Assembly: GCA_963675425.1 (NCBI GenBank)
Contig: OY776214.1
Location: forward strand, 2,316,978 to 2,380,977
Source: an uncultured Sporobacter sp.
GTDB lineage: Bacteria > Bacillota > Clostridia > Oscillospirales > Oscillospiraceae
Length of the DNA: 64,000 nt
Direction: 5' to 3'
Part shown: positions 6,851 to 23,941 of the stretch, piece after piece
Numbering within the stretch: the first letter of the stretch is position 1
How the letters are laid out: each line of letters begins with the position of its first letter
Program-made: the position numbers and the translations under genes
The notes under the pieces: generated by a model
The model's input: only the letters and a program-made list of their open reading frames with translations
The model's database searches: none
What the model was told of the DNA's origin: nothing

Positions 6851-7356
6851 TTTTCTTCACTTCCTTTCCCAAATTCATTTATAATTTTCATTAAAATAGC
6901 CAGAGCCAGGATCAATATACCTATTGCTAAGACATAATAAAGAGGGTAATGCGGCGTTGATGTTGTTAAAGTAGTCTTTCCGCTCAGCTTCACATTTTTA
7001 GCATAGCATGACAGAATAAACCAGCCAATTGCCCCAAACATTATCGTGCTGATTACATTAAGAATTATCCTAACCAGTTTTTGAACTATTACAGGAAATT
7101 TATCCATAATAAAAGTAATATTAACGTGGCCGTCGGTTAGATAGCAGTGGGCGAGAGACAAGCTAATTGCTGATATAAACAGCATCAACAAAATGTCATA
7201 AACACCCCTGATTGGAGTATTAAAAAAAGCCCGTAAAGCAACATTAACGACTATCAAAGCCATCATTGCAGCGATTAATATCTCACTTGCAATATTTAGA
7301 ACTGAACATAGTTTTTCTATAGTTTTGTTGATTAATTTCATATTAAACCAGCTCAC
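6847..7356 (-). CDS. dctQ: TRAP transporter small permease
   Basis: Four TM segments, GHVNITF motif, between dctP and dctM. Confidence 0.9.
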   Translation of the reverse strand: MSWFNMKLINKTIEKLCSVLNIASEILIAAMMALIVVNVALRAFFNTPIRGVYDILLMLFISAISLSLAHCYLTDGHVNITFIMDKFPVIVQKLVRIILNVISTIMFGAIGWFILSCYAKNVKLSGKTTLTTSTPHYPLYYVLAIGILILALAILMKIINEFGKGSEEK

Positions 7357-7387
7357 CTTTGATTTCCCAATATTATTTTTATTTCAT

Positions 7388-7419
7388 CGCACCCGAAGAT
7401 AATACCCCGGGTGCGATGA
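7388..7419. terminator. Stem-loop between dctP and dctQ (mRNA stabiliser or attenuator)
   Basis: tcatcgcaccc...gggtgcgatga 11-bp inverted repeat. Confidence 0.45.
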
Positions 7420-7439
7420 TCTTGTTTATTTTTATTTTT

Positions 7440-8633
7440 TTATTGATACTGAGCGATTAACGCGTCTATTCTTCCTCTCAAATCGGCAGAATAGTCTGCG
7501 AACTCTGTGTTATATTGGTCTACCAATTCTCCGATCTTTGCTAAAGCTTCGGTTCCCGGTAAGCCTTGTTCGTTTAAGAAATCTTCATATGATTGTCGTG
7601 AAGAGGACAACGCTTCTGTAATTTTTCCGTATTCTCCGTCGGAGAGCGTCGTTACTTTGAGGCCGTTCTGCAGGCCGAATTCCAGACTATCACAATATAT
7701 GTCGTCAAAAGCGGTGGACACATCTTCAAAATGCTGTTCATTAACCTCACGGATAATATTTTGGAGATCTTCAGGCAAACTGTTCCATGCATCTTTATTC
7801 ATGCAGACATTTGGTGAAGCGTTATACAAACAGGGCACTTCTACCATGTAATCGACGACTTCATATAAATTCCAGCCGACTAAAGGTTCGGTATTACCTA
7901 AAACTCCGTCTATGGTGTTTTTGGAGAGAGCTTCATAGGCTTCCGCCATTGTCATGGCTACAGGTGTTGCACCCAATGCAGCTACAGCATCGGAGGCCGA
8001 GCTATCGCACCTAATCTGCAAGCCTTTTAAATCTGCTAAGCTTTCTATCGGTTTATTAGTAAAAATGCAGCCGGGCGCCGGGGAAAAGATAAACATGAAT
8101 TCTAAATCAGAATCTACTACTTCAGGAAATGCTTTGACGTAGTCATTATTTACATTAATGGCAACTCTGCCGTTAGTCCATTCAAAACCGGGAACCGCCA
8201 GAGCATTAAACAGCGGAAGTTCGCCCGGACAATAATTATTGATAACTAAGCCTGCATCGGCAAGGCCACTGCCAATTCCTTGAAGCGCGCTGTCGGCTGC
8301 TAATAATGTTCCACCGTAATACATTGTAAATTGTACCCGCCCATTGGTGGCTTCCTCAACTTTTTCCACCCAAGGATCCATAAAGTTTTCAACCATTGGG
8401 TGCCCGTCGGGCATTGGGGAGGCAAAAGTAAAGACGTAAGTTTCCGAAGAATTTTCTTTGCCAGAAGCAGCGCCTTCACTGGAAGCAGCGTCCCCGCCGG
8501 AAGCAGCGTCCCCGCCGGAATCAGCGCCTTCTGCTGCATTATTGTTGGCACATCCGGAGAATAACATAAAAGTGGTGAGAATCAGGGCCAGGGCTACCAA
8601 AATTGAAATACCTTTAAAATTTTTAATCTTCAA
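7440..8633 (-). CDS. dctP: TRAP substrate-binding lipoprotein
   Basis: Lipobox FSGC; low-complexity linker; YYGGTL, DLKGLQIR, LGATPVAMTMAEAYEALSKNTIDG motifs; TTG start with GAGGAGG RBS. Confidence 0.93.
   Translation of the reverse strand: MKIKNFKGISILVALALILTTFMLFSGCANNNAAEGADSGGDAASGGDAASSEGAASGKENSSETYVFTFASPMPDGHPMVENFMDPWVEKVEEATNGRVQFTMYYGGTLLAADSALQGIGSGLADAGLVINNYCPGELPLFNALAVPGFEWTNGRVAINVNNDYVKAFPEVVDSDLEFMFIFSPAPGCIFTNKPIESLADLKGLQIRCDSSASDAVAALGATPVAMTMAEAYEALSKNTIDGVLGNTEPLVGWNLYEVVDYMVEVPCLYNASPNVCMNKDAWNSLPEDLQNIIREVNEQHFEDVSTAFDDIYCDSLEFGLQNGLKVTTLSDGEYGKITEALSSSRQSYEDFLNEQGLPGTEALAKIGELVDQYNTEFADYSADLRGRIDALIAQYQ
8461..8531. repeat. 18-bp coding tandem repeat (GGDAAS linker) in dctP
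   Basis: ggaagcagcgtccccgcc twice exactly, plus degenerate flanking copies. Confidence 0.8.
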
Positions 8634-8976
8634 AACAATTCCTCCTCATAATTTTTATAGTTCATGCTGATCTTTTAAGGATATTTAGCCCAAATATAAT
8701 TCTCATCCCTTCCTTCCCTTCCTTCTTGATAGGCTATCTCTTTCCTTTCAGCACGTTCATTCACCCAATATATAGCCGGCAGATTTCATTTTCTTGCAAA
8801 TAATATTGAGTAATTATTGTAATCCAAGCTGTAAGAAATTAGCGGCTTATTCGTTCTTGGTTCCTGGAATACTTCCGCCTCTCATATCTGCTATGTATAT
8901 TCCGGGCATTTTTATATGCGGTTGAGCCTCTGTAAACATGGGGGCGTTCAAATATAATCCGTATTTTTACAGTGTA

Positions 8977-9285
8977 TATTTACGCCGTAAGATTATCACG
9001 TCGCTGTTCTAATAGCAATACCTAAATTAAATAGTTATGCTCGTCTTTTTTTGTTATTATTGTTATTTGTCAAAGGGGATTAGGGTGATGTTTCTTGCAG
9101 AATGCACATGACTTATCGACATACCGAGCTTTACAAACAGAATTTTATGCCGACAGGCAGGCGTTTAAAATTAACTGCAATTAATATTTACGCCGTAAGA
9201 ATATCATGCCTTTTTTCTAATAGCAATACCTTATTTAAAATCATTATGCGAACTTATTTTTGTTATTGTTTTCACTTGTCAAGGG
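8977..9285. promoter_or_regulatory. Duplicated ~105-bp intergenic block (8977-9078 and 9184-9285) with TTAC-N3-GTAA palindromes
   Basis: atatttacgccgtaaga-tatca...tctaatagcaatacct...ttatgc...tgttatt...ttgtcaa-gg occurs twice; third short copy tttacaatgtaagaatat near 9316-9333. Confidence 0.7.
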
Positions 9286-9348
9286 TCATTAAATATGTTA
9301 CTCTGATAATATAAATTTACAATGTAAGAATATAAAGGAGTTGATTAC

Positions 9349-9621
9349 ATGAATTGGGAACAGATCGTTATTTATAAAAAAGATGAGGTTGATGCTTTAT
9401 TAACAGAAAGAGGGATACTTGATGAGGACATAAAAAAAGTAATTTCGCAGGCTATAGAAAGCGGCGAAAAATTATACCAGGAAGAGGAGTACAGATTTCT
9501 GGCTAAAGCCAAGCTGGAGAGGTTTACAGTTTATGTGGAATATTCACCTGAAAATGACGGATTCCGCATCCATACAGGTTATAGCCATCGAGTTGATTTT
9601 AAATCAGAGCATGTAGAATAG
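9349..9621 (+). CDS. Small protein resembling the isolated C-terminal domain of the oxidoreductase/dicluster protein of DVU_155x-type loci
   Basis: LLTERGILDEDIKKVISQAIESGEKL...FTVYVEYSPENDGFRIHTGYSHR; AAGGAG RBS; family resemblance from recall. Confidence 0.65.
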   Translation: MNWEQIVIYKKDEVDALLTERGILDEDIKKVISQAIESGEKLYQEEEYRFLAKAKLERFTVYVEYSPENDGFRIHTGYSHRVDFKSEHVE

Positions 9622-9635
9622 GAGGTGTTTAATAA

Positions 9636-9827
9636 ATGGGTGAATGGTTATGTTCAACTTGTAAAGTAAAAATGGAAGAAGTGGATGATATCCAGATCTT
9701 TTATGGAGAAGTAGACTTGCCGGATGCATTAGGGATCAGATGCCCGAGCTGCGGCCGAGAATATCTATTGGAACAATTTGTGACGGATGAACTCATCGCT
9801 GCTGAAGAAATGCTTGAAGGCAAATAG
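9636..9827 (+). CDS. DVU_1557-family Zn-ribbon redox protein
   Basis: WLCSTCKV...IRCPSCGREYL...AAEEMLEGK; two CxxC pairs; GGAGG RBS. Confidence 0.8.
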   Translation: MGEWLCSTCKVKMEEVDDIQIFYGEVDLPDALGIRCPSCGREYLLEQFVTDELIAAEEMLEGK

Positions 9828-9838
9828 GAGAAACCTGA

Positions 9839-10576
9839 ATGGCGAAGACAGAAAAACCGTTGATTGAAGTATTTGGTCAGCGTCCTGGCCGGTTTAAGTT
9901 AGCGCTGAAGGGCGCTGAAATAGCAGGCATAAACTGCCGAAGTAAAGTTTTGGAAGTTGGCTGTTCTTACGGCGACACCTCGTTTTTGCTGGCGGAGTCC
10001 TTTGACTGTGAAGTAACCGGGATTGATTTAGAGCGTGAGTACATTGTCCAGGCCGCTGCCAGGACAGATCATACCGACCATAAAGTGCAATTTTGCGTTG
10101 CTGATGTGGTAAAAATGCCTTTTATGGATCAAGCGTTTGATTATATATTTTGCGAAGCGGCGTATTCTCTTTTAAAAGATAAAGAAGCTGCCGTAGATGA
10201 ATATCATAGAGTTTTGGGCGAAAAAGGAAAGGTAATTGTTAATGATTTTTATTTAAAAAGACAAGTTTCGGAAAACGTTCAAAAAAAGATGGATTTTATA
10301 CCGTGCTTTTATGGAATAAAAACTGCTGAAGAATATTGTAAGATTTTTAGCGAGAAAGGATTCAGTCAACTGTTGTTTGCTGATTATTCAAGTGAAATTA
10401 TCAGGATTTCAATGTGGCTGAGCAAAGCGTATGGCGTATCTTCCAAAGAATTGAACCGGCTGTTTGTCAAGCTTTTAAGCCAAAATGATGACGATCATTG
10501 TGATTGTTTAAACGACAGCAACGAATTTTTCAAGGAAGCCAGGCTGGGTTACGGCCAATTTATATTCGGAAAATAA
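9839..10576 (+). CDS. Class I SAM-dependent methyltransferase (DVU_1556-like by context)
   Basis: VLEVGCSYGDT motif I, VTGIDL, MPFMDQAFDYIFCE. Confidence 0.85.
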   Translation: MAKTEKPLIEVFGQRPGRFKLALKGAEIAGINCRSKVLEVGCSYGDTSFLLAESFDCEVTGIDLEREYIVQAAARTDHTDHKVQFCVADVVKMPFMDQAFDYIFCEAAYSLLKDKEAAVDEYHRVLGEKGKVIVNDFYLKRQVSENVQKKMDFIPCFYGIKTAEEYCKIFSEKGFSQLLFADYSSEIIRISMWLSKAYGVSSKELNRLFVKLLSQNDDDHCDCLNDSNEFFKEARLGYGQFIFGK

Positions 10577-10595
10577 TGATAAGAAGGGGATTCAA

Positions 10596-11384
10596 ATTAT
10601 TTTTGCAGGTGTAGATATTGGGTCGACAACGGCAAAAGCAGTATTGCTTGATGAGAATGAAGAAATTTTAGCGTCGGCAATTGTTTATACGAGCTTTGAC
10701 CGCAATGAAAGCGGTATGGAAGTATTAAATCTGGCATTGGAAGAATGCGGGAAATCATTAAAAGATGTAGAATATGTGGTTTCAACGGGTTATGGCAGAA
10801 GAGCCCTGAAGATATCCAATGATGCCATACCGGAGATCATTGGCCACGCTTTGGGAACCCAAAAATTATATCCCGGGGTACGGACCATTATTGACATCGG
10901 AGGCCAGGACAGCAAAGTCATCGCGCTTGATGAAAAAGGAATAATCGAAAAATTTGAGATGAATGACAAATGCGCTGCAGGAACAGGCCGCTTTTTTGAA
11001 GTTTTAGCAGGCCGTTTGTTAAATATATCAATGGATGAATTGGGGCCGCTTTATCTAAAAGCTGAAAATCCTTGTACAATCAGCAGTATGTGTACCATTT
11101 TTGCCGAATCGGAGATTATTTCCTACTTGTCGGAAGGTAAGCTCAAAGAAGACATCATTGCAGGAATGATTAATTCCGTAGCCCGCAGGGTGGTGGCCAT
11201 GGGTAAAACCGGGCAGATTCGATATGAAGAGCCGATTATTCTCTCGGGGGGAGTAGCCAAAAACATCGGGGCGGTAAAAGCCTTTTCAGAAATTATCGGC
11301 AAAGAAGTTCAGGCTATTGAAAACCCACAGTTAACGGGGGCAATGGGGGCGGCACTGAAAGCAAAGGACGAATTTACGAAATAG
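10596..11384 (+). CDS. 2-hydroxyacyl-CoA dehydratase/benzoyl-CoA reductase activase (ASKHA ATPase, HgdC/BadF-like)
   Basis: In-frame upstream of the ORF-track start: (I)IFAGVDIGSTTAKAVLL; STGYGR, IDIGGQDSK, MNDKCAAGTGRF, ISSMCTIFAESE, GGVAKN; probable ATT start at 10596. Confidence 0.93.
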   Translation: MIFAGVDIGSTTAKAVLLDENEEILASAIVYTSFDRNESGMEVLNLALEECGKSLKDVEYVVSTGYGRRALKISNDAIPEIIGHALGTQKLYPGVRTIIDIGGQDSKVIALDEKGIIEKFEMNDKCAAGTGRFFEVLAGRLLNISMDELGPLYLKAENPCTISSMCTIFAESEIISYLSEGKLKEDIIAGMINSVARRVVAMGKTGQIRYEEPIILSGGVAKNIGAVKAFSEIIGKEVQAIENPQLTGAMGAALKAKDEFTK

Positions 11385-11398
11385 GAAGGTGAACAAGG

Positions 11399-12793
11399 GT
11401 GAAGGATTTTGACGTGGTTGTAATCGGCGGTGGTTCCGGCGGTTGTGCCGCTGCAAGCAGGTCGGCCGATCTCGGGAAAAAGGTGGCGTTAATCGAAGGC
11501 AGAGGGAAAGAAGGCCTCGGCGGAACATGTATTAATAGGGGCTGTATACCGGCTAAAATACTTTTGGCATCCGCTGAAACGTATTCCGGGGTGCAGAAAG
11601 CCAAAGATTTTGGAATTGGGGTAACAGGCATCTCCTTTGACTATGAAAAAATCGAGCAGAAAAAACAGGCGTCAATCAAAACCTTGCGGTTCGGCTTGCA
11701 GAATTACATTCTTAAACCCAGAGGAATTGAAATTATCACCGGTTTTGGTAAGATAATTGACTCTCATACGGTAGAGGTGCATGACAACGGGCAGACAGAA
11801 CGGGTTCGGGGTGAAAATATAATTATTGCTTCCGGTTCCGAGCCGGCTATGATTCCATCTTTTCATATTGATGGCCATAACGTCATTACCAGTGACGAAG
11901 CTTTAGAGGTTCGGGAGATCCCCCCGAAGATTACAATTATCGGAGCGGGCGCCCTGGGACTTGAGTTTGCGCATTTGTTTTCAACGTTTGGCAGCAAGGT
12001 GACAGTTGTGGAAATGGCGCCTCAGGTCGTGCCGGCTTTGAAGGATAAGGAATTCACCGGTATGGTTCAAAAATACTTGGAGAAGCAGGGAATTACCGTC
12101 AAGACCGGAGTCAAAATCGACGGCGTAGAAGTCGTTGATGCAGGAAAGGTCGTTTCCAGTTTAAGCAACGGTGAGAAAATCGAAAGCAGTAAAGTGCTGG
12201 TCGCCATCGGCCGCAAACTGAATACCGAAAATATGGGGATTTCGGAATCAGGAATAAAAATGGAAAAGGGCTGTATTCTTGTTGATGATGAAATGAGAAC
12301 GAATATCCCTAATGTATTAGCGGTAGGAGATATCGTCCACGGCCCCCAGCTTTCCCATAAAGCGCAACGGGAAGGAATCGTAGCTGCCGAAGTGATTGCA
12401 GGACTGAGTACGAAAATGGATTATGAGGTTATTCCCTGGGCTATTTTTACACAGCCTGAAATTGCAGCGGTAGGGCTGACCAGGGACGAAGCGGAAGAAC
12501 AGGGAATTAAAACTATTGTCGGCTCCATGCCTTTGATGGCGAATGAAAAGGCCAATGTCATGAAAAAAACAACCGGACAGGTTAAAATTGTAGCTCGCGT
12601 AGATAACAAACAGGTAATTGGCGCTCAGATTTTTGCAGCTGAAGCTTCCATTTTAATTGGCGAATTGGCCGTGGCAGTAAAAAACAAAATTTCCATTGAA
12701 GGCTTATCCAACACGGTTCATGTTCATCCGTCCTTGTCCGAAGCGATTATGGAAGCGAGTAAGAGCAGCTTAGGCAAAGCCTTTCACAAATAA
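11399..12793 (+). CDS. lpdA: Dihydrolipoyl dehydrogenase-like flavoprotein disulfide reductase
   Basis: GGGSGG, redox disulfide GGTCINRGCIPAK, GAGALGLE, HVHPSLSE; GTG start. Confidence 0.92.
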   Translation: MKDFDVVVIGGGSGGCAAASRSADLGKKVALIEGRGKEGLGGTCINRGCIPAKILLASAETYSGVQKAKDFGIGVTGISFDYEKIEQKKQASIKTLRFGLQNYILKPRGIEIITGFGKIIDSHTVEVHDNGQTERVRGENIIIASGSEPAMIPSFHIDGHNVITSDEALEVREIPPKITIIGAGALGLEFAHLFSTFGSKVTVVEMAPQVVPALKDKEFTGMVQKYLEKQGITVKTGVKIDGVEVVDAGKVVSSLSNGEKIESSKVLVAIGRKLNTENMGISESGIKMEKGCILVDDEMRTNIPNVLAVGDIVHGPQLSHKAQREGIVAAEVIAGLSTKMDYEVIPWAIFTQPEIAAVGLTRDEAEEQGIKTIVGSMPLMANEKANVMKKTTGQVKIVARVDNKQVIGAQIFAAEASILIGELAVAVKNKISIEGLSNTVHVHPSLSEAIMEASKSSLGKAFHK

Positions 12794-12834
12794 ATTTCAA
12801 CGAAATTATTTACCCCAAAAAGGAGGCTAAAAGA

Positions 12835-13989
12835 ATGGAAAAAACTTTACGAGAATTGGATGAAGCAGCGAAAAAACGCCCCATTCAGCTGAAAGAGGCA
12901 AAGAAACAAGGCAAAAAGGTTATTCAATACACGGGTAATTTTATACCACCGGAAATGATTTATGCGGCAGGAGCGGAGCCGTATCTTATGTGCAGGGGCG
13001 GAGAACCTGAACCGCCGGACGCTGTCCTGGAGTATATGCTGCGTTTTATGAATCCGCTGGCCAGGTCCATGGCCGGTTATCACATGCTGGGCCTTGATCC
13101 TGTAACGCCGATATCTGATCTGATCGTGACCCAGCAGACCGATTGTCATGTAGGCAGGGTGACAGAACTGTTGGAATTTTTAAAACTGCCCATTCATAAA
13201 GTAGGTGTTCCCTCCGACTGGAAAAAAGGATTTACAGCTGAGTATTACTATAAGTCTTTAGATAAATTAAAAAAAAGACTGGAGGATATAACCGGCAATA
13301 GTATCACGAACGACAATCTGAAGAAATATATCGGTTATACCAACCGGATTAATCGAGTATTAAGAAAAATCGACGACCTGCGTAAAAAAGATAATCCGCC
13401 GCTCGGGGAAAACGAATTCATTCACCTCAATCATTATTCTTTGCTGTGCGAGCCTGAATTTGCAGCTGACAAACTGGAAGAACTATATGAAAAGATAAAA
13501 GACGCTCCCGGCAAGTTCCCGGAAAAAGCTCCCAGATTGCTTTTCGCGGGGCATGCCCTGGCAATCGGAGATTACATTGTCCCTAAACTGATCGAGGACT
13601 ATGGCTCCGTGATTGTTACAGAAATGCTTGATGAAGGAATCCGGCCTTTCAAGTTTGATATAGAAACCGAAGGGGATATGCTTCGTAATTTTGGGGAAAC
13701 CATGTTTTTGAAAAAGACACCTATTAATGTGTTCCAGCCTTCCTGGGAAGACAGGTTTGCCTACATGAAGCAGCTCATCAGTGACTATAAGGTAGACGGC
13801 GTAATTTGGTATCAATTATGTTTCGACGAAATTTACGACATGGAGTGTACCTGCCTGGCTAAATGGCTCGGTGAATTGAACATACCGCTTTTAAAACTGG
13901 AATCCTCTTATGAATACTCCAGGGAGGCAATGGGCCCGCTAAAAACAAGAGTTGAGAGTTTTCTCGAATCTATAAAAGGGAGGAAATAG
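12835..13989 (+). CDS. 2-hydroxyacyl-CoA dehydratase-family subunit (beta/HgdB/BcrC-like)
   Basis: IQYTGNFIPPEMIYAAG, LEDITGNSITNDNLKK, DYKVDGVIWYQLCFDE, LKTRVESFLE. Confidence 0.88.
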   Translation: MEKTLRELDEAAKKRPIQLKEAKKQGKKVIQYTGNFIPPEMIYAAGAEPYLMCRGGEPEPPDAVLEYMLRFMNPLARSMAGYHMLGLDPVTPISDLIVTQQTDCHVGRVTELLEFLKLPIHKVGVPSDWKKGFTAEYYYKSLDKLKKRLEDITGNSITNDNLKKYIGYTNRINRVLRKIDDLRKKDNPPLGENEFIHLNHYSLLCEPEFAADKLEELYEKIKDAPGKFPEKAPRLLFAGHALAIGDYIVPKLIEDYGSVIVTEMLDEGIRPFKFDIETEGDMLRNFGETMFLKKTPINVFQPSWEDRFAYMKQLISDYKVDGVIWYQLCFDEIYDMECTCLAKWLGELNIPLLKLESSYEYSREAMGPLKTRVESFLESIKGRK

Positions 13990-13990
13990 C

Positions 13991-15415
13991 ATGGCTACTA
14001 ATGTGTATGAAGAGTTTTTGGAGCTTTGTGCTTTTGAGCCGGAGGAAATACCGGAAATCCTGCCGCAATGGATCGAGGCCGCTAAGACTTTTGAGCTGAC
14101 GGAAGAGGACATCCGCTTCTCTATAGAAAAGTGGATCCCGGAGAATTGGGATATCCAGTATAGGGGTATCCGCAAGATGATTGGTGCTTGGATCAGGGAA
14201 CTGATTGAACTTAGCAAGGCAACGAAGTATAAAGAAGCGGGCGCCAAGATAATCTATGGGATCATACCGGCTATTACAACCAGTTATCAGGCGATGAAAT
14301 ACAGCGCCGGGGACAATATTTACATAAGTTTTCCCGACGCTATGCTGGTAACGGTCCTGAATGCATTTTTCCATAAAGTCAACCCCTACTTGGAATGTGC
14401 GGAGGAAAACGGCTTTACCTATGGCTGCCGTCATTGTGCGTTGAATAAAACAAGGATTGCAGCCCGCTGGAAAAAAGTGATCCCGGCTCCCGATGTGATC
14501 TGGTCCTGGGGGTTTAACTGCGACGAAGGACCGAAAACGGATGAATATATTCAATGCCTGTTTGATAAGGATTGGAAATACGTTATTACCAGGCTTCCGC
14601 ACGATACCAGTTTTGGGGAGAACGACGACGAACTGGAAGACCGGGTAGAATTTGTGGCTCAGGAGATCAAGGACGGCCTGAGACAAATTGAGGAGATAAC
14701 GGGAATTGAAATAACGGAAGAGCATATGAAAAAAGCGCTGCAAGATTCCAACAGGTATGCGTTTAAAAACGGGATGCTCGTTAGTTTAATGTCCAAAGCT
14801 GATCCCGTGCCTCTGGGTGGAAGTGATATCGTCAATTTCCAGCAGCCGATGGGTGTGCCCTTTAATACCGGTCTAAAATACCTGGAGGAAGCGATTGATT
14901 TGACCATCAAAGAAGTCAGACAAGCCATAAAAGACGGGAAAGGCGTGGCTCCCAAAGGCGCTCCCAAAGTAGCCTTTTACGGCGTGCCTATTGCCGTACC
15001 CTGGGTTGACAGAATGTTCCGGGAGAACGGGGTTGCCCCTACGTTAAGTTTTAATCTGTCGCCAACGAAAAAAATGCTGATGCCTCAAAAATATACGGAC
15101 CCGTATATGGCAACAGCCGAACAATGGTTAAGAATGCCCTTGGGCATGAACATGAGAAGTGAAACAGATACCATGGTGCAAAAAATAAAAGATAATAAGC
15201 CGGATGCCGTGGTTATGGGTTTCTTCGACTTTGACAGGTGGCTCGGCGCCCAGCAAAAGATGGCGGCGAAGCTTATGGAAGATGAGACGGGGGTGTCTAC
15301 TTTTTATATGGAAGCGGACTGGTGGGAAGACAGGGACTATAGTCCGGAAGCCCTTCGTACCAGGATAGAAAGTATTTCCCAGGTATTAAAGCTTAAAAAA
15401 ATAAGCAATGAATAG
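13991..15415 (+). CDS. 2-hydroxyacyl-CoA dehydratase-family subunit (alpha-like), paralog 1, with N-terminal extension
   Basis: CRHCALNK, GFNCDEGPK, LEEITGIEITEEHMKKAL, EADWWEDRDYSPEALRTRIESI. Confidence 0.85.
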   Translation: MATNVYEEFLELCAFEPEEIPEILPQWIEAAKTFELTEEDIRFSIEKWIPENWDIQYRGIRKMIGAWIRELIELSKATKYKEAGAKIIYGIIPAITTSYQAMKYSAGDNIYISFPDAMLVTVLNAFFHKVNPYLECAEENGFTYGCRHCALNKTRIAARWKKVIPAPDVIWSWGFNCDEGPKTDEYIQCLFDKDWKYVITRLPHDTSFGENDDELEDRVEFVAQEIKDGLRQIEEITGIEITEEHMKKALQDSNRYAFKNGMLVSLMSKADPVPLGGSDIVNFQQPMGVPFNTGLKYLEEAIDLTIKEVRQAIKDGKGVAPKGAPKVAFYGVPIAVPWVDRMFRENGVAPTLSFNLSPTKKMLMPQKYTDPYMATAEQWLRMPLGMNMRSETDTMVQKIKDNKPDAVVMGFFDFDRWLGAQQKMAAKLMEDETGVSTFYMEADWWEDRDYSPEALRTRIESISQVLKLKKISNE

Positions 15416-15425
15416 TATTGAGCGA

Positions 15426-15561
15426 AAGCATAGCCAGTTAATGCTTAGTGTATAATAATTATTGGCCAGAAATAAGGAGGAATAGCGAAACTATTCCTCC
15501 TGTATACGAACTTGTTAATGTTGCCAACGTTTACCTGATACATGCCGGCTAATGGCTGTGC
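15426..15561 (+). other. Structured intergenic segment with a strong hairpin
   Basis: 11-bp perfect stem aggaggaatag/ctattcctcct (15475-15501); 15428-15440 can pair imperfectly with 15550-15561. Confidence 0.45.
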
Positions 15562-15635
15562 TTGCTTTTAGAATAAAATTAAGGTAATGTTTTCTATAGG
15601 GCAGTATCAATAATAATTGGAAGGCGCATGAGGCT

Positions 15636-17057
15636 ATGAATAATAATATTTATAAAGAGTTTTTAATGCTGACCGGTTTTGAAAAAGAAGAAATTGCAGA
15701 GTATTTGCCTGAATGGATAAAAGCCTCAAAAAAATTGGGTATTTCTGAAGAGGATATGAATCATGCTGTTAGAGAATGGCTACCCAAACACTGGAGTATT
15801 AACTTAAGGGGAATTAGGAAATGTATTGGCGCTTATATCAGAGAAGTAATTGAAATAACAAAAATATTTGAATATAAACAAAACGGAATTAAAGTGGTTT
15901 ATGGCTCTTTACCGGCTAATCCGATTAGTTTTCAGGCGATCAAAATAAGCGGCGGAGAAAAGGTTTTTGTGGGTTATCCGGGAATTCACATTGTTACAGT
16001 CTTGGGTTCCTTTTTTCATAAGACCTCGGCGTTTACTGAAAAGACTAATAAATGCATTCTGAATGCCGGTTGTCCTCACTGTGGCCTGACCAAGATGAGA
16101 TTGAGTGCCAAAATGGCGGAAGTAATTCCTTCGCCCGACGCCATTTGGAGCTGGGGATTTAATTGTAACGAAGCACCAAAAATGGATGAGTTTATTCATT
16201 GTTATGCTGATGCAAATTGGAAATCAGTATATTGCAGCCTTCCCCATGATACCTATTTAGGGGAAATAGAAAATGAAAGCCAAGAGAGGGTAAAGTATTT
16301 AGCTTTGCAAATTGAAGACGGGCAGCGGCAAATTGAAAAAATAACCGGGATCAAAGTAAGCGAGCAGCATTTTAACCAGGCCCTGGAGGATGCCGACCGG
16401 TTATTGCAAAAAGTTAATTGTCTCAATGATTTGGTTATTAATGCGGACCCGCAACCCTTAAGCGGCAATGAATTATCCCTTATCGAACAGATGATAACCA
16501 TAGCCTTTAATACCGGTTTAAAATATATGGAAGAGGCTATTGATATCACTATCGAGGAAGTGCGGGATTTAATTGACAGAAAAGAAGGAATTTTGCCGGT
16601 TGGAGCGCCTAAGCTGGGTTGTTATTTTGTCCCCTTCTGCGTGCCATGGGTTAATGGGTTATTCCTGGAAAACGGCGTGAATTTATCTTTTAGCACGTTC
16701 TATACAGCGGCGGATAAATTCCTGGAAAAGTCAAGCTATCAGGACCCATTCAGCATAATTGCTGAACAATGGCTGCAAATGCCGGGCAGTGTCAATATAG
16801 CATACGAAGTGGAACTGAATTGCCGGATACTTAGTAAATATAAGCCTGATGCCATGCTGCTTGGTTTCTACAGCTTTGAAAGATGGGTGGGGGTACATCA
16901 CAAAATAATTGTTAATAAGATTGAAGAAAAAATGAAAATACCTCATTTTTATATAGAAGGGGACATCTGGGAAGACGGGATGTTTCGCCTGGATGATTTA
17001 AGAACAAGGATCGAAACTATTTGCAATTTCTTGAAAATGAATAAAATGATTATTTAG
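15636..17057 (+). CDS. 2-hydroxyacyl-CoA dehydratase-family alpha-like paralog 2
   Basis: Colinear with 13991 protein: CPHCGLTK, GFNCNEAPK, ADPQPLSGNE, EGDIWED, LRTRIETI. Confidence 0.85.
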   Translation: MNNNIYKEFLMLTGFEKEEIAEYLPEWIKASKKLGISEEDMNHAVREWLPKHWSINLRGIRKCIGAYIREVIEITKIFEYKQNGIKVVYGSLPANPISFQAIKISGGEKVFVGYPGIHIVTVLGSFFHKTSAFTEKTNKCILNAGCPHCGLTKMRLSAKMAEVIPSPDAIWSWGFNCNEAPKMDEFIHCYADANWKSVYCSLPHDTYLGEIENESQERVKYLALQIEDGQRQIEKITGIKVSEQHFNQALEDADRLLQKVNCLNDLVINADPQPLSGNELSLIEQMITIAFNTGLKYMEEAIDITIEEVRDLIDRKEGILPVGAPKLGCYFVPFCVPWVNGLFLENGVNLSFSTFYTAADKFLEKSSYQDPFSIIAEQWLQMPGSVNIAYEVELNCRILSKYKPDAMLLGFYSFERWVGVHHKIIVNKIEEKMKIPHFYIEGDIWEDGMFRLDDLRTRIETICNFLKMNKMII

Positions 17058-17080
17058 ACTGTTTATTAGGAGCAGGTTAT

Positions 17081-18511
17081 ATGGGGGCGTTTTATGAAAA
17101 AATTCTTTCTCTTTGCGGCTTTGATCAGCAAGAAATAGCAAAGAATACCGGCAAACTACGCAGGGCTTGCGAAAAATTTGGGATTGATGAAGAACAGGTA
17201 GCCTTTGCTGCAGAGAAGTGGATACCTCAAAATTATGATTTAAAGCTGGAGGGAATAAGGAAACTTATTGGCGTTTATATCCGTGAATTTCTCAGCATTT
17301 TGGACCTGTCTCTGGATAAAAATGATAATCGTAAAATTGTCTACGGGACGGTTCCTTCCCCTGTGCCTCTTTTTCATGCCTTGAAAGACAGCTGCAAGGA
17401 GGGAATATATACTGGTGCCCCGGATTTTGTTTTCATGATCGTGTTAAACAGCTTTTTTCATTGGCGTAATATAGGTTTGGAAAGATTGGAGGAACAAGGA
17501 TTTACTCAAGCTTGCAGGCATTGCGCCCTTAATAAAATGCGGGCATTTATCTATTCCGATAATTATATTCCCAGTCCTGATATCGTCTGGACCTGGGGAA
17601 CTGCTTGTGATGAGGCGCCTAAAACTGAAGAGTTTATCCAATTTTGTTATGGTAAACAGTGGTTTTATGTTTCCACAAAAATGCCGCATGATACCTGCAA
17701 AGATGAACAGGGCGACAAGGAGCGGATAACATATCTGGCCAGGCAAATACAAGACGCCGTTTATACAATTGAACAAAAATGCCGATTAAAACTATCCCAA
17801 GAAGCTGTGAGGAAGGCAATGTATAATTGGGGTAAAATTACGGCCAAGATATATTACCTGAATACTTTGATTGCCAATGCCGACCCGGTCCCACTGGGAG
17901 GTAATGAGCTTTCCCTGATTAATTCATTGCAGCTGGCGCCATTGAATATAGAGGTTGAGCTTATTGAGGAGTCTATTGATATTATCATTAAAGAAGTAAA
18001 GGAACGGATCAGAAACGCAGAGGGAATATTACCACGTGGAGCTCCGAGGTTAGGTTGCTATCTTGTCCCTTTTTGCCTTCCCCATATTGTTAAACATTTT
18101 GAAAGGGCCGGTGTTGCTTTAACATTTAATACTTGTATGATGAGGGCAGGCATTCCGGATAATAAAGTACATGGTAGCTGTAAAGTGAGAGATAATAAAA
18201 CGGTTAAGCATCCTTATGAAATAATAGCCGGACAATGGCTGAGCTTGCCGTTGTTTAATAATGTTTTTTATGAAGCAAAGGCAATTGCTCATTTGCTTGC
18301 CAAGTATAAGAATGATGGTTTGATACTCGGTTTTTTCACATTTGACCGTTGGTTGGGGGCACACCAAAACCTTCTGAAAATCATACTCAAAGAATCAATT
18401 GCGAAACCGGTTTTTATAATGGAAGCAAATTTCTGGGATGAACGGTTTAATAATAAACAAAGAATAATAAATCAAATTGAAAGTATCGGAAGATTATTGG
18501 AGAAAGCGTAA
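17081..18511 (+). CDS. 2-hydroxyacyl-CoA dehydratase-family alpha-like paralog 3
   Basis: CRHCALNK, GTACDEAPK, ADPVPLGGNE, EANFWDER. Confidence 0.83.
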   Translation: MGAFYEKILSLCGFDQQEIAKNTGKLRRACEKFGIDEEQVAFAAEKWIPQNYDLKLEGIRKLIGVYIREFLSILDLSLDKNDNRKIVYGTVPSPVPLFHALKDSCKEGIYTGAPDFVFMIVLNSFFHWRNIGLERLEEQGFTQACRHCALNKMRAFIYSDNYIPSPDIVWTWGTACDEAPKTEEFIQFCYGKQWFYVSTKMPHDTCKDEQGDKERITYLARQIQDAVYTIEQKCRLKLSQEAVRKAMYNWGKITAKIYYLNTLIANADPVPLGGNELSLINSLQLAPLNIEVELIEESIDIIIKEVKERIRNAEGILPRGAPRLGCYLVPFCLPHIVKHFERAGVALTFNTCMMRAGIPDNKVHGSCKVRDNKTVKHPYEIIAGQWLSLPLFNNVFYEAKAIAHLLAKYKNDGLILGFFTFDRWLGAHQNLLKIILKESIAKPVFIMEANFWDERFNNKQRIINQIESIGRLLEKA

Positions 18512-19108
18512 ATGCCAAGAAAAAAAGTGATATTTGAAAAACAGAAAATTATTGATGCTTCTTTTCATATTATTAAAAGTGAGGGCAATGAAGCTTTCTC
18601 GGCCAGAAGATTAGCCACGGAACTAAACATTTCGTCAATGACTGTCTATAATTATTACAAAAACATTGATGAAATAAAAAAAGAAGTTATTATTAGAGGT
18701 TTTAGTATTCTTTACAAGATGATTTTTCGTGATATGGAAAACAAAAAGGAAAAGTTGGATGAAGACGGTATTGGTTGTTTATGCAGAATTATCGCGCTCA
18801 ATATGATGAATTTCGCTTTGGAAAATAAAGAAATATATATTTTGATGTTTACTGAGTACGGTTATAAGTTTAGAAATGATCACGAGATCAGGCTTTTTTA
18901 CAATTTCTTGCCGCAACTAGCCAATAGCATTAAACTTGCTCAATCTGAAGCGCAGGAATTAAAAAAAAGGTGCTATATATTTGAAAGCATGATTCAAAGG
19001 CTAATTATGGAAAAATTAAATAAGCTATATGATTATTCCCTGGAAGAATATAATGATTATATTGATTTTAGTTTAAAGCATTTATTTAGGATCGATTCAG
19101 AAGGATGA
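18512..19108 (+). CDS. TetR/AcrR-family transcriptional regulator
   Basis: N-terminal HTH SARRLATELNISSMTVYNYYKNIDEI; TAA-ATG coupling to the upstream gene. Confidence 0.92.
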   Translation: MPRKKVIFEKQKIIDASFHIIKSEGNEAFSARRLATELNISSMTVYNYYKNIDEIKKEVIIRGFSILYKMIFRDMENKKEKLDEDGIGCLCRIIALNMMNFALENKEIYILMFTEYGYKFRNDHEIRLFYNFLPQLANSIKLAQSEAQELKKRCYIFESMIQRLIMEKLNKLYDYSLEEYNDYIDFSLKHLFRIDSEG

Positions 19109-19117
19109 GGTGGAAAA

Positions 19118-20455
19118 ATGAATAGTATAACTGACACGAAAAGTCTATGTCCGGAATGTCTGAACATAATCCCGGCGCATTATGTTGTTGATAATAATAA
19201 TGTCTATTTACATAAAGAATGTCCTGAACATGGTCCGTATAAAGCCCTGGTATGGAGAGATGCCGAGTTATATGAACAATGGCAATCACAGAGTACCCAT
19301 GCGGAAAAAATGGAAAATGGCATTCCCCCGGTAAAGGGGTGTCCCTTGGACTGCGGCTTGTGTACCGAACATGAGGGAGGGACCTGTACAGCCGTTGTGG
19401 AAGTTACTTATCGCTGCAATATGAATTGTCCCGTTTGTTTTGCGGATAGTGCTCAAGAAATTTTCGAGCCGGACATCGATAAAATCCGGGAGATGTTTGT
19501 TGCTGTCCAGAATGAACAAAACACCCTTTGTTCGGTCCAAATAAGCGGAGGGGAACCAACAGTGAGAGATGATCTGCATGAGATTATCCGGTTGGGGAAA
19601 GAGATGGGGTTCGAGCATATTCAAGTTAATACGAACGGCTTGAGAATAGCGGAAGACTTTAATTATTTGCAGCAGCTTAAAGATAGTGGCGCTGATCTAA
19701 TATATTTGCAGTTTGACGGACTGAATGATGACATCTATCAAGCGCTTCGCGGAAAAAAAATGCTTGATACCAAGTTGAAGGCCATCGAAAACTGCCGGGC
19801 TGTTAATATTGGGGTCCTTTTGGTGCCGACAATTGTTCCCCAAGTTAATTTTTCTGAAATAGGTCGGATTATTAATTTTGCCAGAGAACAAATGCCCATA
19901 GTCAAGGGAATCCACTTTCAGCCTGTAAGTTACTTCGGTCGTTTTCCGGTAAGCAGCCCGCAGGATGAGGATAGAGTCACGCTGGCTGATATTGTCAAAG
20001 GAATCGAAGCGCAGACCCAGGGAGAAATAAAAGTTAGGAACCTTGTTCCCCGTAAAAGGTTCAATTCTCACTGCGCGTTCAGCGGATTGTTTTATTTACA
20101 GGATAATGGGAAGTTTCAGCCTATTACCCAAAACAAAACAGAGGAAGTGCCCGAACCCGAAAAAACGACTCAGGATTTTGTGGCCAAGGCAAATCAGTAC
20201 ACCAAAAACCATTGGCAACTGACAAGCGATCCTCAGAAGGAAAAGCAGACGCCTCAATCCGGAAGCCTGGCGAAAAGAATAAAAGACTATACCCTGTCGC
20301 TAACCGGTATGCCTTTCCAGGACGTTTGGAATATTGATATAGGCAGGCTAAAGGGCTGTTGTGTTCAGGTGGTTGATAATAAGGGACAGCTAATTCCACT
20401 TTGCGCTTTTCATCTGACCAGTACAAAAGGGAAAAGGTTGTATCGCAATGAATAA
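19118..20455 (+). CDS. Radical SAM protein, TrsS/MJ0619(Tes)-like architecture, copy 1
   Basis: N-terminal CPEC...CPEHG, GCPLDCGLC, CNMNCPVC SAM motif, SGGEPT, C-terminal HCAF, GCCVQV, PLCAF. Confidence 0.9.
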   Translation: MNSITDTKSLCPECLNIIPAHYVVDNNNVYLHKECPEHGPYKALVWRDAELYEQWQSQSTHAEKMENGIPPVKGCPLDCGLCTEHEGGTCTAVVEVTYRCNMNCPVCFADSAQEIFEPDIDKIREMFVAVQNEQNTLCSVQISGGEPTVRDDLHEIIRLGKEMGFEHIQVNTNGLRIAEDFNYLQQLKDSGADLIYLQFDGLNDDIYQALRGKKMLDTKLKAIENCRAVNIGVLLVPTIVPQVNFSEIGRIINFAREQMPIVKGIHFQPVSYFGRFPVSSPQDEDRVTLADIVKGIEAQTQGEIKVRNLVPRKRFNSHCAFSGLFYLQDNGKFQPITQNKTEEVPEPEKTTQDFVAKANQYTKNHWQLTSDPQKEKQTPQSGSLAKRIKDYTLSLTGMPFQDVWNIDIGRLKGCCVQVVDNKGQLIPLCAFHLTSTKGKRLYRNE

Positions 20456-21758
20456 ACAACGGGACAGGGCATTTTTAATTAAAGAAACCGTAAGCTTATG
20501 CCCTCGCTGTCTGAAGCGGATCCCGGCCAGAATAGAGGAAGTAAACAGCGAGATATATATGAATAAAAGGTGCCCCGAGCATGGCGAATTTCAAACGGTT
20601 ATCTGGCGGGACAATAAGGAAAACTATCTGCAATGGCTGGAATATGGCGGGGGAGAGTCTTTCCTTTCTTCGGAAATACAATCCGACTCCGGTTCAGGAT
20701 GTCCTCATGACTGCGGGCTGTGTGAAGACCACCGGCAGGAAATTTGTTCAGCAGCAATTATGGTTACCAACCGATGCAATCTTAATTGTCCGGTTTGCTT
20801 TACCCGGAGTCCTGAAGAGCATTATTATGAACCTGATTTAAACAGTATTAGAAGTATGTATGAATTTTACCTAAATTCGTGTGGTGAACCATATCCTGTG
20901 GAATTATGCGGGGGTGAACCTACGGTAAGGGATGACCTGCCGCAAATCATTGCGTTGGGAAAGCAATTGGGTTTTGATTATATCCAGCTCAACACGAATG
21001 GCATTAGAATCGCCCAGGATCAGGAGTATTTACATAAGTTAAAAAATGCCGGATTAACAACCGTATACTTGGGATTAGACGGAATATCGGAAGAGCCTTA
21101 TAAATATTCTTCCGGGTATTATCTGGGAAAAAGCATTCTAAGTTATAAGCTGCAGGCTATTAAAAACTGTGCGGAAGCCGGTTTGGCTGTGATTTTGGTT
21201 CCCTGTGTTATTCCCGGGGTCAATGACAGTCAATTAGGAGAAATTATCCGTCTGGCGAAGAAATGGATGCCGGCGGTTAAAGGCGTTCATTTTCAGCCAA
21301 TCAGCTATTTCGGCAATTATCCTGTCGAGCCTCAAAATAAAGACAGGATTACCATACCGGAAGTTTTACGGGCCATCGAAGAACAAACCGGTGGCGAGGT
21401 AAAACGGGATCATTTTCTGCCGACGGGCTGCGAGCATCCCCAATGTTCCTTTAATGGATTTTTTATGATGGCGAAAAATGGAAAGCTGCAGGCTTTGACC
21501 AAATACCAAAAAAGAGAGCAGCGGGAGAGTGAGCCCGCAAAAAAGACGCGTCGTTTCACCAAAACCCAATGGATATATAATGAGCGGATGTCTTTAACCA
21601 TAGGAGGAATGGCGTTCCAGGATGCCTGGAATGTTGATCTTGAAAGATTAAAGCGGTGTATTATTCATATTATCTGCTCTAATCAAAAATTTGTTCCTTT
21701 ATGCGCCAAGTATCTGACGGGTGAAAATGGGTTAAAAATCTTTCCGGGGATAAGCTGA
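20448..21758 (+). CDS. Radical SAM protein, TrsS/MJ0619(Tes)-like architecture, copy 2
   Basis: CPRC...CPEHG, GCPHDCGLC, CNLNCPVC, GGEPT, GCEHPQCSF, RCIIHI, PLCAK; overlaps copy 1 by 8 nt. Confidence 0.9.
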   Translation: MNKQRDRAFLIKETVSLCPRCLKRIPARIEEVNSEIYMNKRCPEHGEFQTVIWRDNKENYLQWLEYGGGESFLSSEIQSDSGSGCPHDCGLCEDHRQEICSAAIMVTNRCNLNCPVCFTRSPEEHYYEPDLNSIRSMYEFYLNSCGEPYPVELCGGEPTVRDDLPQIIALGKQLGFDYIQLNTNGIRIAQDQEYLHKLKNAGLTTVYLGLDGISEEPYKYSSGYYLGKSILSYKLQAIKNCAEAGLAVILVPCVIPGVNDSQLGEIIRLAKKWMPAVKGVHFQPISYFGNYPVEPQNKDRITIPEVLRAIEEQTGGEVKRDHFLPTGCEHPQCSFNGFFMMAKNGKLQALTKYQKREQRESEPAKKTRRFTKTQWIYNERMSLTIGGMAFQDAWNVDLERLKRCIIHIICSNQKFVPLCAKYLTGENGLKIFPGIS

Positions 21759-21769
21759 GGTATTTATTT

Positions 21770-23134
21770 ATGAATGGCATTGTGAAGATGCAGGACGGCC
21801 TGTTCAGGCTGTGCAGGAACCAGATTACCGAAGAAAAGCAATTCGGGCAGGAAAAAAATCTGACGCCGGACGCTAAAATCACGAATCAAATATTTGAGGA
21901 ATTCCGTTTATATAAATTAAAGAAAACGCTGCAGTACGTTTATGATAAAAGTAAATTTTACCGTGAGCTTTTCGACCGGCATAACATATTACCGGAAGAT
22001 ATTCAGTCTATACAGGACTTAAAAAAGATCCCATTAACGTCCTCCCAGGACCTGGCTGCCAGGGGGTACGACTTTCTATGCCTGTCGCAGGGAGCAATGG
22101 AAAAAGCTGTTACCTTTACCAGTTCGGGGACTGTTGGCCCTCAGAAGAAGATCTTTTTTACCGCAGGTGATCTGGAAAAGATGACAGATTTTATGGGTGT
22201 GGGCATGAATACTGTAACCGGGGCGGATGGTGTTGTCCAGATCCTGCTTCCCAGTGGGCCGGTCATGGGTCAAGCCGATTTGCTGGCCCAGGGAGTTCGG
22301 AAAATGGGAGCGGAAGCTGTTTATACAGGGATGTTTGTTCCCAGCGAAGAGCAGATTCAAGCAATTATTAAGTATGGAAGCACTGTGATTTTTGGCGAAA
22401 CCAGATTGATTTACCGCATAACAAAAGAGATGGAAGATAAGTACGATCTAGCTAAATTGGGCGTTAAGACACTCTTCGTAACAACAAGTCATCTTTCGGA
22501 TGTTATGCGTCAAAATCTTGAAACAGCCTGGAATTGTCAAATAGTGACCCACTATGGTCTGACTGAAATGGGCCTGGGCCTGGCAGTTGATTGTCCTTAT
22601 GGTGAGGGTTACCACACCAACGAGTTAGATGTAATTGCCGAGCTTGTTGATCCGAAAACAGGTGAGGTTTTGCCGGACGGAAAAGAGGGCGAACTGGTAT
22701 TTACGACGATCACCAGGGATGGGATGCCGTTAATCCGTTACCGGACGCATGATATAGCCACGTTAACCTCTCAAACTTGCCCCTGTGGTTCTCATTTAAA
22801 TACAATCAGCCGAATCAACCGCAGGTTGGAATCCATTGTGCAAATAAGCCCGGAATTCAGTATTTATCCCGCTTTATTTGACGATGTTTTGTTTAAACTA
22901 CCCGAGGTAGTAGATTACGAAATTTACCTGGAGAAAAAGGACGGGAAACAAAACCTTATATTTGAAGTGGAGCTTACTGCAGAGAGTGAAAATGTAAAAA
23001 AAGAAATCATACGGCAATTACAGAATAACGAAATTATTATGAAATACTTTGATTTGCCGGTGATAAAAACCGTTCCCCCGGGAGCTTTAAAGGGTGGGGC
23101 ACATTTTAAAAAGATGATTAGAGTTTTACCTTAG
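21770..23134 (+). CDS. AMP-dependent CoA ligase, PaaK/F390-synthetase-like (DVU_1553-like by context)
   Basis: FTSSGTVG P-loop, HYGLTEMG, GELVFTT, PLIRYRTHD. Confidence 0.88.
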   Translation: MNGIVKMQDGLFRLCRNQITEEKQFGQEKNLTPDAKITNQIFEEFRLYKLKKTLQYVYDKSKFYRELFDRHNILPEDIQSIQDLKKIPLTSSQDLAARGYDFLCLSQGAMEKAVTFTSSGTVGPQKKIFFTAGDLEKMTDFMGVGMNTVTGADGVVQILLPSGPVMGQADLLAQGVRKMGAEAVYTGMFVPSEEQIQAIIKYGSTVIFGETRLIYRITKEMEDKYDLAKLGVKTLFVTTSHLSDVMRQNLETAWNCQIVTHYGLTEMGLGLAVDCPYGEGYHTNELDVIAELVDPKTGEVLPDGKEGELVFTTITRDGMPLIRYRTHDIATLTSQTCPCGSHLNTISRINRRLESIVQISPEFSIYPALFDDVLFKLPEVVDYEIYLEKKDGKQNLIFEVELTAESENVKKEIIRQLQNNEIIMKYFDLPVIKTVPPGALKGGAHFKKMIRVLP

Positions 23135-23215
23135 TAGGAATTTTTGTCTTGAAAGTATTTAACCGGGACTTACCGCAAACGCGGACATAATAATTTTAAG
23201 ATTTGAGGTATCGCT

Positions 23216-23860
23216 ATGGAAAACAAAACATCAGGAATACAAAGCCGGTCCGAGGCGGCGGTTATACCCGCGCCCGAACCCGATCCCAAAAGCATGTTCG
23301 GCGTAGATAAAAACATAAATATGGCGACCATAGACGATTGGCTTGGACGCGGCGACGTTCTTTACAGGGATGTCAGGATGCTGTTTGACCCGGCCGAATA
23401 CGCCACCATCGGCGGCAATCAGGAACTGTCCGAAACGATCACAGGTTTCAAAATCGTTCCCCATCCTTACCTTGCGACGCTTATGAAGCTCCCGGTCAAG
23501 AACGCCTATTTGGGCGATACGCTCTTTACGCTTACGTGGGATAAAAAGGGCGCGATCACGTCGGCGACAGCTAATTACAAGGAATCACTGACTATCCTTG
23601 AGGAGCTCTTCCCCAAAAACAAAAAAATATTCATTATGTGCGGCGGCGGCGGTTATGCCTCCATGACACGGGCGCTCCTGATCCATCTGGGTTGGAACGC
23701 GAACGACCTGTATAATATCGGCGGAAACTGGGCCTATAAAGGCGGTAACGCGCTCAAACTCATCGAGTACCCGGAAGAAACGGGCGGCGACACCCTTTAT
23801 GCGCTTTGGAGGGCCGACTATGCGCTGATCGATTTTACCAGACTTCACAAAGCGGAGTAA
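23216..23860 (+). CDS. Rhodanese-like domain protein
   Basis: YRDVRML, FIMCGGGGYAS active-site loop, YNIGGNWAY. Confidence 0.7.
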   Translation: MENKTSGIQSRSEAAVIPAPEPDPKSMFGVDKNINMATIDDWLGRGDVLYRDVRMLFDPAEYATIGGNQELSETITGFKIVPHPYLATLMKLPVKNAYLGDTLFTLTWDKKGAITSATANYKESLTILEELFPKNKKIFIMCGGGGYASMTRALLIHLGWNANDLYNIGGNWAYKGGNALKLIEYPEETGGDTLYALWRADYALIDFTRLHKAE

Positions 23861-23902: not shown

Positions 23903-23941
23903 AAGTGTGTAAACCGGAAATACGGTTTACACACTTTTTTC
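23903..23941 (+). terminator. Intrinsic terminator
   Basis: aagtgtgtaaaccg-gaaata-cggtttacacactt followed by a T tract. Confidence 0.75.

Follow-up and report, generated by a model that had tools for sequence, protein, structure and literature searches.

The locus raises the question of what a flavoprotein related to dihydrolipoyl dehydrogenase (E3) does in an operon, and in a genome, where the lipoylated partners of such an enzyme are not found. The gene is located on the forward strand at positions 11399 to 12793 of the window, i.e., the entire 64,000-nucleotide stretch of DNA analyzed here. It has a GTG start, reads without stops, and encodes 464 amino acids; it starts 14 bp past the end of an activase gene (11384) and ends 41 bp ahead of the first of four HGD-D genes (12835). 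The initial annotation described it as an intact but orphan E3 with a CINRGC disulfide and an HPSLSE motif, and both parts of this description hold, the second throughout the genome. In profile searches the protein scores 471.8 bits against TIGR01350 (cut-off 408.8) and stays under the own cut-offs of MerA, glutathione reductase, SthA, and other relatives; none of the family cut-offs for glutathione, mercuric, mycothione, or thioredoxin reductase is reached. Moreover, the sequence does not have the C-terminal Cys pair of MerA and high-Mr thioredoxin reductase.

The redox-active disulfide C44-INRG-C49 (11528..11545, forward strand) and the catalytic His443-Glu448 dyad (H443-PSLS-E448; 12725..12742, forward strand) are invariant in 120/120 homologs. 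The pyridine-nucleotide-binding motif GAGALG with the acidic E205 (11942..12013, forward strand), apparent in the sequence and the homolog alignment, is one that we take to be of the NAD type, which suggests a preference for NAD. The AlphaFold model (pLDDT 95) matches solved E3 structures with TM values of 0.93-0.97. The protein thus shares its fold, the CxxxxC motif, the His-x4-Glu dyad, the FAD and NAD folds, and the NAD-type motif with dihydrolipoyl dehydrogenases (PDB 1ebd, 3lad, and 6uzi), and both sequence and modeled fold place it in the E3 family. It differs from these in identity (only 35-38%), in the otherwise kept GPGGY motif, which reads GSGGC with Cys16 (11444..11446, forward strand) in place of the Tyr according to alignments with PDB entries and homologs, in S319, E383, and F462, in that lipoylation partners are not found, and in its location in a TrsS cassette. 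Comparison with an 89% identical Sporobacter copy (L028) gives a dN/dS of 0.146, so the gene is under purifying selection.

The source genome, which belongs to an anaerobe and is one contig at 97.6% completeness, is the basis of all genome-wide absence results. It has no second Lpd/E3 gene, and GcvH, an E2 core, LplA/B, LipA, and GcvP were each looked for across it and not found. An E1 of a 2-oxoacid dehydrogenase was not found in the genome either; the two E1_dh matches resemble transketolase N-terminal domains. The biotin/lipoyl matches are two MKM biotin carriers together with efflux-adaptor-like proteins, the sole ligase of the lipoate/biotin type is BirA-like, and a custom profile based on lipoyl plus biotinyl domains revealed no hidden lipoyl domain in the genome. 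Because no lipoylated E2 or H protein and no lipoylation enzymes were found, the E3-like protein is not the E3 component of a dehydrogenase or glycine cleavage complex. Where a genome lacks lipoate, a metabolic model that takes the label "dihydrolipoyl dehydrogenase" at face value can thus go astray.

The E3-like gene is part of a co-directional run of genes on the forward strand, from 9349 to 23860. The first encodes a stand-alone protein of 90 residues (9349..9621) that matches positions 675-757 of NF045663 (E 8e-20). It is followed by a DUF7479/DVU_1557-like zinc-ribbon protein of an acidic subtype (9636..9827; PF24292), with Lys63 at 9822-9824, a DVU_1556-like SAM methyltransferase (9839..10576; NF045667, 117 bits, under the cut-off of 155), and an ATP-dependent activase of the HgdC/BadF type (10596..11384; TIGR00241, 226 with a cut-off of 125). 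Downstream of the E3-like gene are four HGD-D family Fe-S subunits (12835..18511; individually 12835-13989, 13991-15415, 15636-17057, and 17081-18511), which all match PF06050 and none of which reaches a named-family cut-off, and a TetR-family regulator (18512..19108; a weak PF00440 match). These are followed by two Tes-like TrsS radical SAM paralogs (19118..21758; 19118-20455 and 20448-21758, NF045646 scores of 553.6 and 512.9, cut-off 490) and a DVU_1553-family AMP-forming ligase (21770..23134; NF045666, 340, cut-off 300). A 214-residue protein (23216..23860), with no Pfam or NCBIfam match and an 87% homolog in L019, is encoded by the last gene ahead of a strong, terminator-like hairpin (23903-23936); by eye it looks rhodanese-like, and its one Cys lies in a glycine-rich loop. 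The start codon of the activase ORF is ATT 10596, 6 bases after AAGGGG, and not TTG 10644; ATT is also the start codon in the Sporobacter relative L028, and ATG is used in L029. ORF callers that miss the ATT start lose the N-terminal nucleotide-binding motif of the activase. A promoter scan of the operon gave results at chance level. The GC content of the operon is low (42.6% vs 50.9%), and it is present in 2/15 genomes of the genus.

TrsS is among the proteins listed in PMC13188914, which cites Haft and Tolstoy 2025, and the TrsS/DVU_1551-1560 cassette is defined in NCBIfam by NF045645, NF045646, and NF045663-NF045668. Our literature search, which covered work other than the primary cassette paper, found no described chemistry for it. 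The core set of this cassette is complete in the window, with the two TrsS proteins and the ligase above their cut-offs and the methyltransferase and the DVU_1557 homolog below theirs. The cassette is frequent in anaerobes: of the 401 Clostridia genomes sampled, 19 carry it, according to the table of gene places. In its canonical layout a Mo-aldehyde oxidoreductase is followed by NF045663 and DUF7479, as seen for 29 DUF7479 places in the 401 Clostridia genomes plus a second cassette in the source genome. The window operon has DUF7479, the methyltransferase, TrsS, the AMP ligase, and the 90-residue domain in common with the canonical cassette. Unlike it, the window operon lacks the Mo-aldehyde oxidoreductase and its maturation genes (XdhC, NTP transferase) and the NF045663 flavoprotein, of which just the 90-residue C-terminal domain is present; its own features are that this domain is free, that there are two TrsS genes, that DUF7479 is acidic, and that an E3-like gene is included. 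An activase and HGD-D subunits are also usual in the E3-type cassette, in contrast to the canonical one. By its gene content, the window operon is a variant of the TrsS/DVU_1551-1560 cassette. The source genome also holds a complete canonical DVU_1551-1560 cassette with the Mo-aldehyde oxidoreductase (L178; G000:C1:1384580-1395890), so both cassette types coexist in it.

The nearest homologs of the E3-like protein (52-89% identity) split into two groups. In a quick IQ-TREE search, the protein belongs to a clade (SH-aLRT 97) in which Tyr16 is replaced by Cys, rarely by Ser or Thr; S319, E383, and F462 are further changes specific to the clade. Cys occupies position 16 in 83/119 of the closest homologs, and Tyr in 23/23 canonical E3 proteins taken from loci and in the PDB alignments. 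A role for Cys16 as a third catalytic thiol was considered and is ruled out, since three cassette copies have Ser or Thr at this position. All located copies with Cys, Ser, or Thr at position 16 (roughly 25, spread over roughly 23 operons in several families of Bacillota) are within the TrsS cassette variant, numbers that show linkage and not independent events as the operons are related. The check proposed with the initial annotation, whether lpdA is conserved in homologous clusters, hence has a positive outcome. A metagenome scan returned chiefly generic E3 proteins and glutathione reductases, with clade members at only five loci. As for the sister group that retains Tyr16, none of the three contexts read is a cassette, and none has E2 or GcvH alongside. 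One such sister gene ends a TusA-YeeE-DsrE-DsrE-DsrH operon (L093:5694-9392), and another follows genes for ArsR and a CxxC-bearing CMD/AhpD-like protein (L092:7212-9392); the sisters may be part of a larger set of E3-like enzymes that handle sulfur. Where relatives have E2 or GcvH, they retain distinct E3 genes of 34-38% identity, which in G005 and G006 are directly beside E2. The literature search found no study of the Cys16 clade. Neither this clade nor the exchange of reductases discussed below turned up in our searches; the cassette itself is already catalogued.

Wherever the contig extends far enough, the 90-residue protein and DUF7479 accompany the E3-like gene of the clade. A search seeded with the acidic DUF7479 alone led to two new genomes, both with an E3-like gene one to two genes away, and the short duplicated modules L015 and L022 keep the trio of 90-residue protein, DUF7479, and E3 together. 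The linkage to the cassette persists through many rearrangements. In two complete operons, L030 and L223, the E3-like gene is accompanied by those for the 90-residue protein, DUF7479, the methyltransferase, two TrsS proteins, and the ligase, and both activase and dehydratase are missing. The operons without activase and the trio modules argue that the E3-like gene belongs to the TrsS module and not to the activase, which it adjoins in many operons. At L230:6390-7631, the second TrsS gene is spread over several reading frames, and the HGD-D genes are present in fragments, reflecting either a decaying cassette or assembly errors.

The place of the E3-like gene appears to be taken by other reductases elsewhere. 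NF045663 comprises a GltD-like flavin module, a dicluster part, a CCG domain, and the fused 90-residue domain. It was not found in E3-type operons, and a clade member was found within approximately 7 kb of none of the 29 canonical places (at L209 the nearby E3 is a canonical one with Tyr16). In terms of gene content, the clade E3-like gene and the CCG-domain flavoprotein are thus shown to be mutually exclusive. A deltaproteobacterial operon, at L016:1-12585 and L227:9396-14081, reads trsS-trsS-ligase-hdrCBA-flxDCBA-activase-90aa-DUF7479-methyltransferase-HGD-D x2. Its layout is that of the E3 type with HdrC, HdrB, HdrA, and FlxDCBA between ligase and activase; a search of this assembly gave no clade member. 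It is a single example from one metagenome-assembled genome, and a search of 300 genomes of that phylum gave no second one. Hdr-Flx also yields reduced ferredoxin and could instead be present for the activase. Judged by domain content, the three modules carry or resemble a flavin-fed site of the disulfide-reducing type; for NF045663, a function as disulfide reductase is suggested by one CCG hit. Exchange in this slot hints that thiol/disulfide chemistry may be central to the cassette. A rule by which two TrsS proteins go with E3 and one with CCG fits the 29 canonical places and is broken by the Hdr-Flx operon, which has two.

What disulfide might be reduced? In DUF7479 the last residue is Lys in 47/47 aligned sequences, and four cysteines are invariant. 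The net charge is -13 to -7 in the E3-linked subtype, whereas canonical DUF7479 proteins range from -5 to +2. The best fold matches of the DUF7479 model are MqsA (Z 5.7, rmsd 3.1, 60 aligned) and ZifS (Z 5.3). Since the model is that of an MqsA/YgiT-type zinc ribbon, its cysteines are more likely zinc ligands than a redox substrate. The 90-residue protein is 31% identical to the C-terminus of L182, the C-terminal domain of NF045663 (E 5e-10), and 20/23 members match DUF4258 below its cut-off; it is a probable adaptor, judging from these similarities. With one protein MqsA/YgiT-like and the other weakly DUF4258-like, the two together resemble a toxin-antitoxin-like module that has been co-opted and whose cysteines are structural. 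The amino-group carriers of the LysW type are small acidic zinc ribbons with Glu as the invariant last residue, encoded together with an activating ligase. The E3-linked DUF7479 likewise is an acidic zinc ribbon with an invariant terminal residue; it ends in Lys, not Glu, it models on MqsA and ZifS, and LysW is not among the fold matches of the model; the likeness is one of analogy only. Lipoyl domains are also acidic, and E3 acts on a dithiol that is amide-linked to a lysine of such a carrier. A complex prediction for the E3-like dimer with DUF7479 and zinc, in which Lys63 was left unmodified, scored 0.02 (mark 0.32) and weighs neither for nor against an interaction.

In a part of the clade, the carrier may be a lipoyl domain. 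In a nested lineage (Schaedlerella, Faecalicatena, Eubacterium; G010-G013), the cassette operon has a free lipoyl domain that retains its Lys, and copies read to the end also have a lipoate ligase; no E2 or GcvH was found in these genomes. In L033 the free lipoyl domain has a Cys-rich N-terminal extension (12049-12342) and the lipoate ligase consists of a catalytic domain only (18396-19127), which on sequence grounds we read as a self-contained lipoyl redox relay. As lipoyl domain and ligase are present in these operons without E2 or GcvH, they suggest that the clade still accepts dithiol-on-lysine substrates, and real lipoate can, as far as gene content tells, be the partner in these Lachnospiraceae-type operons. 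The mycobacterial Lpd-DlaT-AhpD-AhpC system is a lipoyl redox relay outside a dehydrogenase complex. Lipoyl redox chemistry outside such a complex is also known for Staphylococcus aureus GcvH-L with LplA2 (PMC12440151). The Lachnospiraceae-type operons resemble both systems, which need lipoate and a lipoyl domain, whereas neither was found in the source genome. In Cuneatibacter, a fusion partner of DUF5714 is lipoyl-like but has no lipoyl lysine (L021:4022-5131).

Collectively, the gene content suggests that the enzyme is, in a broad sense, probably a disulfide reductase dedicated to the cassette. On balance, we favor as the best explanation overall an NADH:disulfide oxidoreductase dedicated to this variant of the TrsS cassette and working without a 2-oxoacid dehydrogenase or glycine cleavage complex. 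NADH would reduce FAD, and the electrons would move on to C44-C49 and from there to a disulfide of the cassette itself, with His443-Glu448 acting as the acid-base pair; the machinery is evident from the sequence, the direction of flow and the substrate are inferred. A sulfur carrier not described so far probably serves the cassette. The likeliest single substrate, named here tentatively, would be an acyl arm that bears a thiol and is bound through an amide to Lys63 of DUF7479, a functional analogue of lipoyl-lysine. Tyr16 of E3 presumably lines the lipoamide channel, and its replacement by Cys, Ser, or Thr might widen the channel for the arm. The AMP-forming ligase would load the acyl arm onto Lys63, and the Tes-like TrsS enzymes would supply its sulfur. 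Tes, a relative of TrsS, forms a C-S bond in its substrate with the use of an auxiliary cluster (PMC13459092). The arm is thus suggested by the acidic, lysine-ended DUF7479 in combination with an acid-activating ligase and the C-S chemistry of Tes; TrsS could instead form C-C bonds, which Tes does as well. A more general and equally speculative model is that the TrsS cassette makes an undescribed thiol cofactor, a lipoyl analogue, which stays bound to a zinc-ribbon carrier protein through its C-terminal lysine, and that three unrelated reductases (the E3 clade, the flavin/CCG fusion, and Hdr-Flx) have been recruited for its recycling. Most cassette proteins are oxygen-sensitive Fe-S enzymes, and the E3-type flavoprotein, which is easy to express and assay, is therefore a direct means of getting at the substrate of the cassette.

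Among the other explanations, the one that survives best, although we consider it unlikely, is that the enzyme reduces an imported free small disulfide (lipoate or a dithio-acid) as the first catabolic step, with the ligase, the methyltransferase, and the dehydratase-type subunits processing the resulting thiol acid. There is precedent in LpdA of Advenella mimigardefordensis, an E3 that cleaves the non-lipoyl disulfide 3,3'-dithiodipropionate (PMC5373536); this is a housekeeping-type E3 of an aerobe acting on a free compound, and no dedicated clade or cassette has been described for it. TRAP or SSF transporters flank several operons (5552-8633 in the window, L030, and L036), and patchy occurrence combined with low GC content is a feature of catabolic islands. 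However, the flanking transporters vary from operon to operon, and the fixed pairing of the E3-like gene with the 90-residue protein and DUF7479, and the acidic shift of the latter, are left unexplained.

Two further possibilities appear less probable still, and equally so. In the first, the enzyme is an NADH diaphorase giving electrons to the activase or to radical SAM clusters. The adjacency to the activase noted above and the Hdr-Flx replacement, as a possible source of reduced ferredoxin, are in keeping with this, and E3 enzymes show diaphorase side activity. Yet the disulfide and the His-Glu dyad are invariant though such activity does not need them, and at least two small ferredoxins as well as flavodoxin-like proteins are encoded in the genome. 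NADH, at approximately -320 mV, is ill suited to reduce an activase normally fed by ferredoxin or flavodoxin, and its potential is unfavorable without bifurcation, which to our knowledge E3 enzymes do not perform. Given this, together with the operons that have neither activase nor dehydratase (L030, L223), direct feeding of the activase, as proposed in the initial annotation, is unlikely. In the second, the enzyme reduces a CxxC disulfide in DUF7479, C-GCAxxG-C-C, or DUF5714 proteins directly, in the manner of thioredoxin reductase. The constant linkage to DUF7479, the name "redox protein" given to DVU_1557 in NCBIfam, and the Tyr16 sisters, whose neighbors are a CxxC-bearing CMD/AhpD-like protein or sulfur carriers (TusA/DsrE/DsrH), favor this reading; the zinc-ribbon model with its four invariant cysteines does not, nor does the lack of C-terminal shuttle cysteines in the E3-like enzyme. 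Moreover, the buried disulfide of E3 is normally reached by a long arm, and genes for C-GCAxxG-C-C and DUF5714 proteins were not found in the window operon. Of the earlier suggestion that the enzyme recycles thiols for the CxxC protein, a thiol-recycling role tied to the module of this protein stands, while its CxxC motifs are doubtful as substrate. Finally, that the enzyme is a standard E3 whose lipoyl protein is encoded far away or in unassembled sequence, or that its gene is a passenger, is largely refuted and very improbable: the TIGR01350 score and a genome that is not 100% complete would allow for it, against which stand six separate lipoate functions not found in one contig, the separate E3 genes of relatives with E2 or GcvH, and a cassette linkage that has outlasted many rearrangements.

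Two observations concern the surroundings of the operon and of its genome. Upstream of the operon (8971-9333), a segment of approximately 110 bp is duplicated (8976-9082 and 9184-9291, 72-86% alike), and the same region has three copies of a TTTAC-N3-GTAAG box, candidates for the operator of the operon's TetR protein. Elsewhere in the source genome (L180:7663-12127, G000 near 4.298 Mb), genes for a methyltransferase, a radical SAM-DUF5714 fusion, and a thioredoxin-thioredoxin reductase fusion follow one another; here, too, a disulfide reductase accompanies a radical SAM module.
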